Made by a program: the position numbers and the translations under genes
Shown here: piece after piece, positions 58,669 to 64,000 of the stretch
How the letters are laid out: each line of letters begins with the position of its first letter
How positions within the stretch are numbered: the first letter of the stretch is position 1
Notes under the pieces: model-generated
Databases searched by the model: none
Told to the model about the DNA's origin: nothing
Seen by the model: the letters and a program-made list of their open reading frames with translations, nothing else
Source: an uncultured Chloroflexia bacterium
GTDB lineage: Bacteria > Chloroflexota > Limnocylindria > Limnocylindrales > CSP1-4
Direction: 5' to 3'
Assembly: GCA_963749705.1 (NCBI GenBank)
Contig: CAVVNQ010000003.1
Span: 1 to 64,000 of the forward strand
DNA length: 64,000 nucleotides

Positions 58669-58745
58669 TGGCGGACCCGACCGGATTCGAACCGGCGATC
58701 TCCAGCGTGACAGGCTGGCATGTTGGGCCGCTACACCACGGGTCC
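58669..58745 (-). tRNA. tRNA-Asp (GTC)
   Basis: GGACCCG/CGGGTCC acceptor stem, CCAGC-CTGTCAC-GCTGG anticodon arm, GGTTCGAATCC T-loop, encoded CCA; 77 nt. Confidence 0.97.
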
Positions 58746-60136: not shown

Positions 60137-60838
60137 GTGGACGTGATCCCGGCCATCGACGTCGCCAACGGACGCTCGCGGGTCGTGTACTGGCCGGGCG
60201 CGGCGGCCGGCATCGGCGCGCCCACCGATCGTCCCGAGCAGATCGCGGAGCAGCTCGTGCACCAGGGCGCGAGGATCCTGCACCTGGTCGACTTCGACGG
60301 AGCGCGGCGCGCGGCGCCGGCGGACCTCGACGTCGTGGGCGCGGTCGCGGCGCGGGTGGCGGTCCCGCTCCAGGTCGCGGGCGGGCTCGAAGCCGCGGAT
60401 CATGTGCGACTGGCGTTTGCCGCAGGCGCGACGCGGGTGGTGCTCTCGATCGCGATCGTGGAGCATCCAGAGGCGCTCCGCGAATGCCTGGCCGTGGCCG
60501 GGGACTGGCTCGCCGTCGGCCTGGATCCCCGACCGGAGCGGCTCGCGGCCTTCCCCTGGGCTCGCGCCGTGCCGCCCACGATCGACTCGCTGGTCGAGGA
60601 GCTCGTCGGGCAGGGCGTCCACCGGCTCGTCCTCAGCCACGGTGGCGCCACGCCGGACGCCACGCTCCTGACCACGCTGGTGAACCGCCACGACGCCGAC
60701 ATCCTCGTCGCCGGGGGTGTTGCCGACCTCGACGGCATCCGTCGGCTGCGCGACGCCGGCATCACCGGCCTCATCCTCGGAGAGGCGATCCTCTCCGGTG
60801 CCATCGAGCTCCCACGCGCCCTGGAGGCCGCCGCATGA
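60137..60838 (+). CDS. HisA/HisF-like TIM-barrel protein, divergent
   Basis: [25 protein letters not shown]. The TDIxRDG loop is absent. Confidence 0.8.
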
Positions 60839-61542
60839 TTTCCCGCATCGTCGCCCGCGGCCTTGCCGCGCTCGTCGTCCCGATGCTAGTCGCCGCCTGC
60901 AGCGGCGGAGGCGCCGCGGTGCCGACGGTGGCGCCCGCTTCGGCCGCGGCCTCGTCACAGGCGGCGCCAACCGGGACCGCGGCGACCGCCTGTCCGACCG
61001 CCCAGCCGGCTGCGTTGAGCGCCGATGACGTGCGCACCGTCACCATCGACACCGAGAAGGGCGCCATCGTCATCGAGGTCCGAGGGTCGCTGTCCCCGAT
61101 CGCGACCGGAAACTTCGTGGCACTCGCGTCCTGCGGCTACTACGACGGCGTCGTGTTCCACCGGGTCGCAACGCTCCAGGACGGCACCCCGTTCGTGATC
61201 CAGGGCGGCGACGGCCAGTACGGTCGGGTCCCGACCGTCGACCCCAGCCGCGTGGGCACCGGCGGTCCCGGGTACGCCATCCAGGACGAACCCGTGACGG
61301 CCACCTATCAGCGAGGGACCGTCGCGATGGCCCGATCTGCGGCCCCCAACTCCGTGGGATCGCAGTTCTTCATCGTCCTCGACGACCGCGCCCGCGACGT
61401 TCTCGCCTCGTACAACACCTACCAGATCATCGGCACCGTGACCTCGGGGATGGACGTGGCGGACGCGATCTACGCGGCCGCCGATGCCGAGATCCCGACC
61501 AATCCGATCCCGATGACCAAGGTCACCGTCAGCACCCCGTAA
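60835..61542 (+). CDS. Cyclophilin-type PPIase, lipoprotein
   Basis: LVAAC lipobox, [26 protein letters not shown]. Confidence 0.9.
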
Positions 61543-61570: not shown

Positions 61571-62059
61571 ATGACCCGAGCCATCATCGCGACCGAAGCC
61601 GGCACCATCGAGGCTGACCTGTTCACCGACGGCGCCCCGAAGGCCGCCGGCAACTTCGTCAAGCTCGCCAAGCAGGGCTTCTACGACGACGTCATCTTCC
61701 ACCGCGTCATCCCCGGATTCATGATCCAGGGCGGCGACGGGGAGTTCGGCAAGAAGGCGTCGCTCAACACCGGGCGCGTCGGCACCGGCGGACCCGGCTA
61801 CAAGTTCGACGACGAGCCGTTCACCGGGAGCTATGTCCGCGGCACGCTCGCGATGGCGAATGCCGGGCCGAACACGAACGGCTCGCAGTTCTTCATCATG
61901 CACGCGGACTACGCGCTGCCCAAGAGCTACACGATCTTCGGCCTGGTGACCAAGGGGATCGACGTCGTTGACGCCATTGCCAGCGCGCCGCGCAACAGCC
62001 GTGATCTGCCCGATGCGCCGGTTGCGATGACCTCGGTGACGATCGTCGACGAGGAGTAA
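61571..62059 (+). CDS. Cyclophilin-type PPIase, cytoplasmic
   Basis: [30 protein letters not shown]. Confidence 0.93.
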
Positions 62060-62231
62060 CCGCGGCCGCGAGCTGACGTCCTGCGCACGCGGGCGCGCTC
62101 CGGCGATCGCCACGTCCGGCCTGCGCTCCGGTCGTCTCGAAACCGGTCGGCAACCGGAACGTTAAGCAATTTTCACCGAAGCGGCGGACAAAACCCTTTC
62201 CTAATCCGCACCTGCGCAGTAGGATATCGAC

Positions 62232-62407
62232 GCTGCAAGTCAGCCAGCGCTGCCCCAGCATCAAGGTCATGGGTAGGTAGGGTTAGGGTAGTCGGTTCAG
62301 CCGACGCGATAGATGACCTTGGCGCGCGGCAGAAGGTCCGCCCTCGGGTGGACACCTTCACCGGGACAGCAACGAGGCGGCTCCTTCGGGAGCCGCCTCG
62401 TACGTTT
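62232..62407 (+). ncRNA. Candidate structured small RNA, family unknown
   Basis: TAGGAT -10 at 62220, several stems whose G-U pairs favour the + strand, a UUCG terminator, and no credible ORF. Confidence 0.55.
62372..62407 (+). terminator. Intrinsic terminator
   Basis: ACGAGGCGGCTCC-TTCG-GGAGCCGCCTCGT followed by ACGTTT. Confidence 0.8.
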
Positions 62408-62453
62408 ACCGGGCGGCGGAGGGTCGAATCGGCCGCGCTCTGCGCGCGGAAGC

Positions 62454-62687
62454 GCTCCCCGTCAGATGCGCTCGCCCTGTCAGATGCGCTCCCCCTGTCA
62501 GATGTCCGGCACGCGAGCGTTCGCCGTCGTCGCGGAGCATCACCGGAACGCGCATCCCCCCTGAGGTCGCTCCCGGAGCGCCGGTCCGTGCACGAATGGA
62601 ACGCTCGCCGAGCTGCGCTCCGTTGGAAAGCCGGCCGTACCGGCGCCAATCGACGGCGAACGCCCGGCTTGTGGACATCTGGCAGGG
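62454..62687. repeat. Palindromic element with tandemly amplified left end
   Basis: Arms 62493-62529 / 62651-62687; 16-18-bp GTCAGATG-containing unit x3. Confidence 0.65.
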
Positions 62688-62809
62688 ACGGAGGCCCGGG
62701 CGAGGAGGAGCGACTGGGCAACGGCCGCGGACCGAGCAACGCGGATCCGGGACGTGGATCAATTCATCCCGCAGTGCGTCCCGCTCGACCCGGGGGCACA
62801 ATCCGCGAC

Positions 62810-64000
62810 ATGGCAGCCGTTCCTTCCCGAAGCCCCGGTCAGGGCGACACCCCGGAGCTCCTGTGGTCGCCACCCGCCGACGTGCGTGAGCGATCACGCA
62901 TCGGTCGCTACCTTGCCTGGCTGGAGTCCACCAGCGATCTTCGATTCGATGGCTACGACGCGCTGTGGCGCTGGTCGGTGGATGAACCGGGCGCGTTCTG
63001 GCAGTCCGTGTGGGATCACTTCAGGGTGGCCGCCGCGACGCCGCCGGAGACGGCACTCGCGGATGCATCGATGCCCGGCGCACGCTGGTTTCCGGGCGCG
63101 ACGCTCAACTATGCGGCCCACGAGCTGGCGCTCCCCGGTCGCGACGGCTCGGACGTGGTGGTCGTCGCGCAGTCGCAGACGCGGCTACCCATCGAGCTGA
63201 CCGCCGACGAGCTGCGGGACGCCGTCCGAAGGTGTCGCGCGGGCCTGGTCCGCCTGGGCGTGCGGCGAGGTGATCGCGTCGCTGCGCTGCTGCCCAACAT
63301 CCCGGAGACGCTCGTCGCCTTCCTCGCCAGCGCGTCGCTGGGAGCCGTGTGGTCGTCGTGCGCCCCGGAGTTCGGGGTGCGGGCGATCATCGACCGCTTC
63401 GCCCAGATCGAGCCCGTGGTCCTGCTCACGATCGACGGCTATCGCTACGGCGACCGCGACATCGACCGGCGCGACGCGGTGGCCGAGATCCGTGCCGCGC
63501 TGCCGACCGTTCGCGCGACCGTGGCCGTGCGGTACCTCGAGCCGGACGCCGAGGACGCCAGGGGCGACGCCGGCCGAACGACGACCGGCGAGACCATTCC
63601 ATGGTCGGCGCTGCTGGGCGAGCGCGGGCCGCTGGCGTTCGAGCCGGTCCCGTTCGACCATCCGCTGTACATCCTGTTCTCGTCGGGCACGACCGGCCTT
63701 CCGAAGCCGATCGTCCACGGGCACGGTGGCATCCTGCTCGAGCACCTCAAGGCGATTGCCCTCCACATGGACCTCGGTCCGGATTCGCGCTTCTTCTGGT
63801 TCACGACGACCGGCTGGATGATGTGGAACTACCTGGTGTCGGGGCTCGCGGTCGGGGCCACGATCGTCCTGTTCGATGGCAACCCGGCGTGGCCGGACCT
63901 CATGACGCTGTGGCGGCTCGCAGCCGAGACGCGCACGACCTACCTGGGCACGAGCGCGCCATTCCTGATGGCGTGCCGATCCGCCGGCCTCGAGCCGGGG
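62810..64000 (+). CDS. Acetoacetate--CoA ligase (runs off the window)
   Basis: Not in the ORF track. LWRWSV..FWQSVWD, WFPGATLNYA, WSSCAPEFG, FDHPLYILFSSGTTGLPKPIVHGHGG, TTTGWMMWN. Confidence 0.92.
   Translation, partial: MAAVPSRSPGQGDTPELLWSPPADVRERSRIGRYLAWLESTSDLRFDGYDALWRWSVDEPGAFWQSVWDHFRVAAATPPETALADASMPGARWFPGATLNYAAHELALPGRDGSDVVVVAQSQTRLPIELTADELRDAVRRCRAGLVRLGVRRGDRVAALLPNIPETLVAFLASASLGAVWSSCAPEFGVRAIIDRFAQIEPVVLLTIDGYRYGDRDIDRRDAVAEIRAALPTVRATVAVRYLEPDAEDARGDAGRTTTGETIPWSALLGERGPLAFEPVPFDHPLYILFSSGTTGLPKPIVHGHGGILLEHLKAIALHMDLGPDSRFFWFTTTGWMMWNYLVSGLAVGATIVLFDGNPAWPDLMTLWRLAAETRTTYLGTSAPFLMACRSAGLEPG

Follow-up and report, generated by a model that had tools for sequence, protein, structure and literature searches.

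Among described RNAs, several resemble in part the element studied here, which occupies positions 62220-62407 of a 64,000-nucleotide (nt) stretch of DNA from an uncultured Chloroflexia bacterium (assembly GCA_963749705.1, contig CAVVNQ010000003.1, positions 1 to 64,000, forward strand); this whole stretch is called the window. 6S RNA (RF00013) is, like the element, a small RNA of presumably high abundance in which a long helix encloses a large unpaired region. The actinobacterial 6C RNA is an Rfam family whose C-rich hairpin loops pair with G-rich mRNA sites, and it shares with the element its small size, a stand-alone gene, a high-G+C bacterial host, and conserved homopurine or homopyrimidine loops. 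The NAG-repeat RNAs of TRAP and HutP and the GGA sponges of CsrA also carry short purine-rich repeats in unpaired RNA. Spinach and Mango are G-quadruplex-based RNA aptamers. As at this locus, in such aptamers helices flank a loop that supplies the G's, the linkers are short, and an incomplete layer could in principle be completed by another G. The class V GTP aptamer is reported to have a G-quadruplex (G4) core in bulges between helices, with a tetrad layer completed by the guanine of the ligand (PMC12718690). Finally, orphan noncoding RNAs discovered through comparative genomics, such as the raiA motif (PMC10861870), have in common with the element a gene that stands alone and carries a promoter and a terminator of its own, a covarying multihelix fold, conserved junction or loop nucleotides, and a function that is not evident from the neighbors.

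The element also departs from each of these systems. 6S RNA is built of two long arms around a central bubble whose sequence is not invariant, whereas the element has a junction or a short distal helix and an invariant loop. The hairpin loops of 6C RNA are C-rich, while the loop of the element is G-rich, internal, far longer, and without an Rfam match. Unlike the TRAP, HutP, and CsrA RNAs, the element holds only three conserved NAG triplets at irregular spacing and no GGA hairpin loops. G4 aptamers were selected in vitro; the element, in contrast, is a natural conserved gene, for which a G4 core is a candidate that appears in none of 125 energy-model folds. Compared with the raiA motif, the element has no sequence or model similarity (Rfam 15), is much smaller, is restricted to one class, and is organized around a single G-rich-loop core.

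Here, we report that positions 62220-62407 of the + strand are the gene of a stand-alone, single-copy, structured noncoding RNA of approximately 170 to 175 nt. It represents a new family, although its general kind, that of stand-alone structured noncoding RNAs, is already known. The distribution is restricted to three (designated f1, f2, and f4) of the five families of the class Limnocylindria, phylum Chloroflexota. An earlier note on this DNA, made from the sequence alone, had proposed an unannotated stand-alone structured small RNA (sRNA) of this size on this strand; conservation and covariation support that proposal, and we consider it nearly certain that the element belongs to a real family of structured noncoding RNAs. 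Limnocylindria are widespread in soils and lakes; to our knowledge, the class has no cultured member and its RNA biology is undescribed. A literature search combining Limnocylindria with RNA motif, riboswitch, sRNA, or noncoding RNA found no paper on such an RNA within the collection that it covered.

Distribution of the RNA among Limnocylindria

The source genome has a size of 3.6 Mb, 71.5% G+C, and a completeness of 88%. With positions 62200-62410 as the BLAST query, the element was found in 33 of the 36 genomes of the same genus, with 80 to 100% identity over approximately 200 nt. Its core (62263-62326) was recovered with 83 to 88% identity in every genome of a second family of the same taxonomic order (24/24), and these genomes are only 1.0 to 1.4 Mb in size. 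Since the RNA is kept even in genomes this small, it probably does something basic in that family. BLAST and the covariance model both gave one copy per genome, and the apparent second BLAST matches were the palindromic terminator read on the opposite strand.

A covariance model (R1), built from the sequences found by BLAST, matched 42 of 44 genomes in f1, 6 of 6 in f2, and 47 of 50 in f4 (45/48 without the unpublished genomes G151 and G176, from which no sequence was used), and it found nothing in f3 (0/49) or f5 (0/1). In a sample of 151 Chloroflexota genomes, the sole matches were the 13 members of f1, f2, and f4, and approximately 136 genomes from other families of the phylum gave none. 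A core-only model (R2), run on 41 f3 genomes, gave one marginal match of 24 bits, in which half of the G tract was missing and several pairs were mismatched; in addition, no match adjoined five f3 cyclophilin genes, even with the search filters off.

When one genome of each prokaryotic species was scanned for the exact pattern, at least 120 stretches were returned. Eighty were fetched, of which 79 were true homologs and one, in a Thiothrix record, was a chance match. The homolog records are labeled Chloroflexi or Chloroflexota, Candidatus Limnocylindria, or Limnocylindrales, with the exception of five (L130, L132, L135, L142, and L156), two of which are labeled Steroidobacteraceae and one each Polarisedimenticolia, Sulfomarinibacteraceae, and Anaerolineaceae. 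Given their f1- or f4-type sequences, we infer that these labels reflect binning or labeling noise; the RNA could serve to mark misbinned contigs. The motif pattern gave 0 stretches in a viral contig collection, and a metagenome scan with the 3'-strand anchor GCCGRCGNGATAGATG yielded homologs in just 3 of 121 stretches, the pattern being too unspecific; in all three, the tract was intact.

Predicted fold and covariation

The architecture consists of a 5' hairpin and a long helix, P2, which carries an asymmetric internal loop and is capped by a small hairpin (P2c); f1 and f2 add the P3 hairpin and a closing helix, P1 (Table 1). The hairpins, the inner stem, the unpaired tract, and the perfect 13-bp UUCG stem that the earlier note had read from the letters all lie where it placed them, both in the sequence and upon folding; within P2, for example, CAAGGTCAT (62262-62270) pairs with ATGACCTTG (62313-62321). 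The 5' hairpin also occurs in f1, with variable sequence, and its f4 counterpart is GCUGUUCGCACAGC. Folding of the + strand gave a minimum free energy of -87 kcal/mol, compared to -71.5 ± 4.3 kcal/mol for 200 shuffles, none of which equaled it (z = -3.63). The - strand folds equally well (z = -3.77); therefore, folding energy alone cannot choose the strand.

RNAalifold on the MAFFT alignment of f1 and f2 predicted 26 pairs and showed compensatory changes in 7. Pairing was also evaluated on 100 homologs aligned to the covariance model, using as a control the same partners slid by 1 to 3 columns. In this model-fitted alignment, 97.8% of the cells were paired, compared to 27 to 41% after sliding; none of 500 shuffles reached the observed values, and both sides change in 17 of the 24 pairs. 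For 125 distinct core sequences aligned with MAFFT alone, 91.3% of the cells were paired, versus 24.5 to 46% after sliding, and both sides change in 10 of 17 pairs. Changes on both sides were seen in P2 in 8 of 12 pairs (MAFFT core) or 7 of 11 (model fitted) and in P2c in 5 of 6 pairs, with 100% of the P2c cells paired (model fitted). P2c is found as GUCGG/CCGAC in f1, as GUCGC/GCGAC in f2, and as UGCGG-GAAA-CCGCG or AGCGG/CCGCU in f4. Despite wide sequence divergence, each of the 67 distinct f1 sequences of P3 forms one hairpin with 6 bp or more (67/67), and f2 has its own covarying 5-bp stem at this place, with the loop UGACUUGUUC. At one position, located three pairs below the loop, 96 of the 125 sequences have a mismatch, and the genus of the window has a U-A pair.

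Approximately 232 of the 2,261 paired cells are G-U, as summed from the per-pair table of the model-fitted alignment. Because G-U pairs become A-C mismatches on the opposite strand, the + strand is the RNA, as the earlier note had argued from its G-U pairs. Its statement that the only open reading frame (ORF) is Met-Gly-Arg-stop was not literally true, since four mechanical ORFs overlap the region (62313-62564 and 62348-64000 on the + strand, 62173-62739 and 61896-62270 on the - strand). None of them can be conserved: the G tract gains or loses 0 to 2 nt among homologs, which shifts every frame, and the element is therefore noncoding. Coding was rejected on this ground, both for the Met-Gly-Arg-stop frame and for the open frame across the tract. 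Overall, a homolog search with a covariation analysis, a check of the kind that the earlier note had suggested, recovered homologs in three families, in which the stems covary and the loop is kept.

Two partners for the 5' strand

The 5' strand CTGCC (62250-62254) can pair either with GGCAG (62328-62332) or with GGGACAGC (62363-62370), and the two pairings are mutually exclusive. Pairing with GGGACAGC forms P1, which closes a three-way junction and is paired in 535 of 535 cells over the f1 and f2 rows, with pair types G-C/A-U/G-U and C-G/U-A/U-G. The pairing with GGCAG, put forward in the earlier note as the outer stem, holds in 373 of 381 cells of the same rows. Thus, that outer stem can form, but the same bases pair unbroken with GGGACAGC. 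Family f4 is without P1 and P3; its P2 runs to the 5' end, and UCCGGCAGCA is unpaired before the terminator. A switch between the two pairings of the 5' strand is a possibility.

The 3' strand of P1 lies inside a conserved 3' element, whose relatives are UCCGGCAGCA in f4 and GCGGACCGGC in f2. This conservation across families just ahead of the terminator and the two exclusive partners of GCUGCC (535/535 and 373/381 cells) would also agree with an sRNA that base pairs in trans. Its seed would be either the 3' element (ACCGGGACAGCA in f1 and UCCGGCAGCA in f4) or a portion of the G loop, and the remainder would be a scaffold whose 5' GCUGCC pairings determine whether the seed is hidden or free. 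We find this explanation improbable, given that none of 121 genomes of the class yielded Hfq (PF17209), that the genome of the window holds no extended complement of the loop, and that the invariance of the loop is far above what is usual for seeds. An Hfq-dependent base-pairing sRNA was rejected on the absence of Hfq from the 121 genomes and of any loop complement of 12 nt or longer in the genome of the window.

Table 1. Features of the RNA locus and adjoining cyclophilin genes (positions in the window)
Feature	Position	Strand	Basis or remark
Cyclophilin gene, first of a tandem pair	60820-61542		PF00160
Cyclophilin-type peptidyl-prolyl isomerase	61571-62059	+	PF00160; directly upstream of the RNA
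AT-rich block GTTAAGCAATTTTCACC	62161-62177	+	Upstream of the promoter; conserved in the same-genus alignment
-35-like hexamer TTTCCT, weak	62197-62202	+	17 nt ahead of the -10; genus conserved
-10-like hexamer TAGGAT	62220-62225	+	Conserved as TAGGATAT among visible same-genus rows
5' hairpin GCUG-CAAGU-CAGC (GCTGCAAGTCAGC)	62233-62245	+	Fold of the window sequence
P1 5' strand GCUGCCCC	62249-62256	+	RNAalifold; alternative partner GGCAG at 62328-62332
P2 5' strand GCAUCAAGGUCAU	62258-62270	+	Covarying pairs
G-rich loop strand GGGUAGGU(A)GGGU(U)AGGGUA, the unpaired tract GGGTAGGTAGGGTTAGGGTA	62271-62290	+	Invariant except 62279 and 62284
P2c hairpin GUCGG-UUCAG-CCGAC	62291-62305	+	Covarying pairs
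3' loop strand GCGAUAG (consensus G-n-G-A-n-A-G)	62306-62312	+	Nearly invariant
P2 3' strand AUGACCUUGGCGC	62313-62325	+	RNAalifold and covariation
P3 hairpin GAAGG-UCCGCC-CUCG-GGUGGA-CA-CCUUC	62332-62359	+	Folding of f1 sequences
P1 3' strand GGGACAGC, inside the conserved 3' element ACCGGGACAGCA	62363-62370	+	RNAalifold and pairing counts
Terminator, 13-bp stem and UUCG loop (62372-62401), then ACGUUU	62372-62407	+	Fold

The invariant G-rich loop

The asymmetric internal loop has the form 5'-GGGUAGGU(n0-2)GGGUnAGGGUAG / CGnGAnAG-3'. The motif CAUGGGUAGG-(1-4 nt)-GGGUnAGGGUAG ... GnGAnAGAUG was present in all 97 homolog loci fetched by BLAST or by covariance model, a count in which some genomes appear twice and no locus was fetched by the motif pattern. 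Six other fetched loci lacked the motif and were chance BLAST matches elsewhere in the genome. The core alignment of 125 sequences has 31 invariant columns; its rows were partly selected by the motif, and the 97-locus count is the less biased of the two. Within the loop, the linker that follows GGU varies both in number (0 to 2 nt; 62279) and in identity (none, A, U, C, UU, UA, or CA). The middle base of UnA (62284) and the two n positions of the 3' strand are variable as well, and rare changes in the 3' strand are seen in three sequences (L138, L170, and L204). Inspection of the core alignment by eye revealed no Watson-Crick relation among the four variable loop positions.

All 11 G's of the tract are fixed, and its variable positions are confined to two of the three linkers. 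The pattern GGG-UA-GG-U(n0-2)-GGG-UnA-GGG was found in all homologs examined, with linkers of 2, 1 to 3, and 3 nt that hold only A, U, or C and never exceed 3 nt. Four tracts of at least two G's with short linkers correspond to the sequence criterion for an RNA G4. In the 3.6-Mb genome, this is the sole GGG-GG-GGG-GGG tract with A/T-only linkers, among 253 looser matches.

According to a review (PMC8191793), depletion of RNA G4s has been reported for bacteria, where natural examples are few and are located in coding regions. Against this background, a conserved noncoding RNA with such a tract would, if a G4-type core is true, provide the first natural test case of a functional G4 in a bacterial noncoding RNA. 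Even if the core is of another kind, the 31 invariant columns and the clean covariation offer a compact motif for structural, ligand, or protein screening.

Comparison with known RNA families and RNA-binding proteins

In a search against Rfam 15, one tRNA was the sole match in the whole window, the region 62000-62900 gave at an E value of ≤10 just subthreshold matches driven by the terminator, and in seven loci of f1, f2, and f4, tRNAs alone were matched. The covariance scan that the earlier note had named as a check thus assigned the element to no known family, either at the gathering score or at an E value of ≤10. That the element is not a tmRNA, SRP RNA, or RNase P RNA, none of which the earlier note had recognized in it, also stood, with no Rfam match to any of them. 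An SRP RNA was rejected as a candidate in its own right, the RF00169 match of the genome (74.2 bits) being on another contig.

A divergent 6S-like RNA, which would bind RNA polymerase, had been offered by the earlier note on account of size. The size is indeed about right, the promoter context fits an abundant RNA, and the 6S RNA of the class is unaccounted for (Rfam model, 0/151). Nevertheless, RF00013 did not match the element, with no match in the region at an E value of ≤10 or in the whole genome at an E value of ≤1. The fold departs from 6S RNA as well, being a three-way junction in f1 and f2 or a rod with a terminal helix of 5 to 6 bp in f4; the helix past the "bubble" has only 5 to 6 bp. 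In addition, f3 is without the element and without a detectable 6S RNA, so the two distributions are not complementary. We therefore hold a 6S-like RNA to be very improbable. The silence of RF00013 in all 151 genomes of the class is weak evidence, since the model found 6S RNA in only 4 to 5 of 14 controls; a distribution complementary to that of 6S RNA was likewise set aside as an argument, as a model that found none in any family (0/151) makes the test uninformative. The 6S RNA of Limnocylindria, if present, is unaccounted for by the Rfam 6S model.

The idea that the UAG motifs titrate a NAG-binding protein did not hold: one of the four UAG lies at a variable position, the spacing is irregular, and neither TRAP (PF02081) nor HutP (PF09021) was found in the 88%-complete genome of the window. 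A sponge of the CsrB/Rsm type was rejected, as there are no repeated-GGA hairpin loops and CsrA (PF02599) was not found in that genome. Like Hfq, RRM_1 was found in 0 of 121 genomes of the class. All profiles for partner proteins (RRM, Hfq, TRAP, HutP, and CsrA) came back empty, and novel RNA-binding proteins would lie outside these families.

Promoter-like region, terminator, and possible expression

Transcription of the RNA apparently starts at a separate promoter, directly behind a cyclophilin gene, and stops at a strong hairpin terminator. Promoter-like pairs are TTGACC-17-TATCCT in f4, TTGGAA-17-TATCCT in f2, and the weaker TTTCCT-17-TAGGAT in the window, where transcription would start near 62230-62233. 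The AT-rich block GTTAAGCAATTTTCACC is conspicuous against a genome of 71.5% G+C, and f4 has a similar block, GTAAAGGAATCTTAG, in the same relative place; it is possibly an UP-like element or a regulator site. The terminator hairpin is found in all three families with compensatory changes; its tail in the window has only three U's, and f2 has a proper U tail. Both the promoter-like TAGGAT and the UUCG terminator pointed out in the earlier note are thus present, but the -35 hexamer is weak, the tail is short, and the consensus scan given below calls neither.

Contigs from four metatranscriptomic runs, belonging to four studies, contain relatives with 80 to 99% identity and span, for example, 62246-62400, 62240-62369, and 62267-62400. 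These contigs lend weak support to expression. The flanking intergenic DNA is uncovered by them, and it is uninformative on the transcript ends because relatives of 80 to 95% identity are unalignable there; contig depths give no ranking of the element relative to the cyclophilin gene.

Of 80 loci of f1, f2, and f4, 75 have a cyclophilin gene that lies on the strand of the RNA and ends at most 450 nt upstream of it (27/30 in the f1 genus, 26/28 in other f1/f2, 16/16 in f2, and 6/6 in f4). Such a constant position in three families, the lack of an obvious terminator between cyclophilin and RNA in f2, and two metatranscriptome contigs that join the end of the cyclophilin gene to the element would be in line with a cis-acting 3' element of the cyclophilin mRNA, that is, a shared terminator, stabilizer, or regulator rather than an independent RNA. 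Yet promoter-like -35/-10 pairs lie between the gene and the RNA in all three families, and the type of the adjacent cyclophilin differs, from 162 amino acids (aa) without an extension in the window to 219 to 230 aa with an N-terminal extension in f4. Moreover, f3 has cyclophilin genes and no such RNA. A cis element of this kind has, in our view, only a slim chance of being correct. A cis riboswitch was rejected, considering the perfect terminator hairpin, the lack of an evident antiterminator pairing, and the differing downstream gene; the varying downstream neighbor (acyl-CoA synthetase-like versus tRNA-Arg) argues against such a function.

Proposed mode of action

Since the internal loop is unvarying while every helix around it covaries, we place the function of the RNA in this loop. 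The loop would fold to a compact non-Watson-Crick core to which a partner, be it a protein or a small ligand, binds specifically. The core might take the form of a parallel G-quadruplex-like stack, made of the tracts GGG, GG, GGG, and GGG and held between P2 and the small hairpin. In this way, the RNA would work in trans by binding, not by coding, long antisense pairing, or as a cis riboswitch. As a whole, this proposal of a trans-acting RNA whose invariant loop forms a non-Watson-Crick core, with a G4-like stack as the leading model, is one to which we give even chances. That the loop is a binding module, rather than an antisense or cis element, seems to us somewhat more probable, while the G4-like core itself is tentative and, on balance, rather doubtful. 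The G-quadruplex suggested by the earlier note has in its favor the fixed G's and the variable A/U linkers that a G4 predicts, and against it the outcome of energy-model folding.

Several observations weigh against this proposal. With the G4 model of ViennaRNA, a G4 appeared in 0 of 125 minimum-energy folds of the core sequences, although this model requires equal tract lengths and scores two-layer stacks weakly. One tract has just two G's, and a regular three-layer G4 is impossible unless a further G is brought in. Invariance extends to the linker bases U, A, and UA, which a simple G4 does not need and which equally fits sequence-specific recognition by a protein. No candidate partner was identified (RRM and Hfq in 0/121 genomes of the class; TRAP, HutP, and CsrA with 0 matches in the genome of the window). 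The 3' element CCGGGACAGC is conserved too, so the loop may not account for the whole function. The constant site after a cyclophilin gene (75/80) could indicate a cis action on that mRNA. Regarding transcription, a simple, strict consensus scan of 61900-62900 gave 0 promoter-like and 0 terminator-like sites, and the support from RNA libraries consists of contigs only, for which carry-over of DNA is possible and from which transcript ends are not readable.

The invariant linkers bear on a further explanation, a protein-binding decoy or scaffold. Here, a lineage-specific protein would read the loop base by base as single-stranded GGGUA-like repeats, with no quadruplex, and the RNA would titrate or deliver that protein. 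Four repeats of the GGGU/GGU type, linker U and A as invariant as the G's, a promoter context that looks strong with its AT-rich upstream block, and the retention of the RNA even in genomes of 1.0 to 1.4 Mb would all agree with such a role. On the other hand, each RNA has a single copy of the motif, whereas known sponges have many sites, and no candidate protein emerged (RRM_1 and Hfq, 0/121; TRAP, HutP, and CsrA not found in the 88%-complete genome of the window). We consider a decoy unlikely, yet deserving of serious attention.

Returning to a G4-like core, a more specific version would be a natural, lineage-wide incomplete G4 (GGG-GG-GGG-GGG) between two helices, in which the missing G comes from the 3' loop strand or from a guanine-derived or planar ligand. 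The RNA might then be a trans-acting sensor in which occupancy of the core sets the partner of the 5' GCUGCC. The GCUGCC-GGCAG pairing would correspond to a rod form with the 3' element CCGGGACAGC free, and the GCUGCC-GGGACAGC pairing to the three-way junction, with this element hidden. We regard this version as quite unlikely.

Genomic neighborhood

The RNA follows a tandem pair of cyclophilin genes, with E values for PF00160 of 5.7e-42 and 2.1e-30. The second of these genes encodes a bare 162-aa domain, and the first carries an N-terminal extension ending in ...LVAACSGGG, which resembles a lipoprotein signal. Downstream of the RNA, the window has a spacer of 400 nt and then an acyl-CoA synthetase-like gene, with its start at 62810. 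In all 15 f2 and f4 loci examined (including L039, L047, L225, and L228), a tRNA-Arg(CCG) gene lies downstream on the same strand, with a -10-like TATCCT or TAGACT just ahead of it. This arrangement suggests cyclophilin, RNA, and tRNA-Arg as the ancestral order. In f1, locus L105 is likewise followed by a tRNA.

Just past the terminator, positions 62452-62505 hold three tandem 18-nt repeats, GCGCTCCCCGTCAGATGC and two copies with 78 to 83% identity, which may serve as operators or belong to a leader. A 37-nt inverted repeat (62493-62529/62651-62687; 81% complementary, with 121 nt between the arms) has a 13-nt repeat inside. Both a long structured leader and a small mobile element are conceivable here, and the spacer that holds this repeat is not conserved among genomes of the same genus. 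Elsewhere in the window, a tRNA gene is located at 58672-58745 on the - strand (Rfam, 63.7 bits), with its anticodon loop read from the alignment as GUC (Asp).

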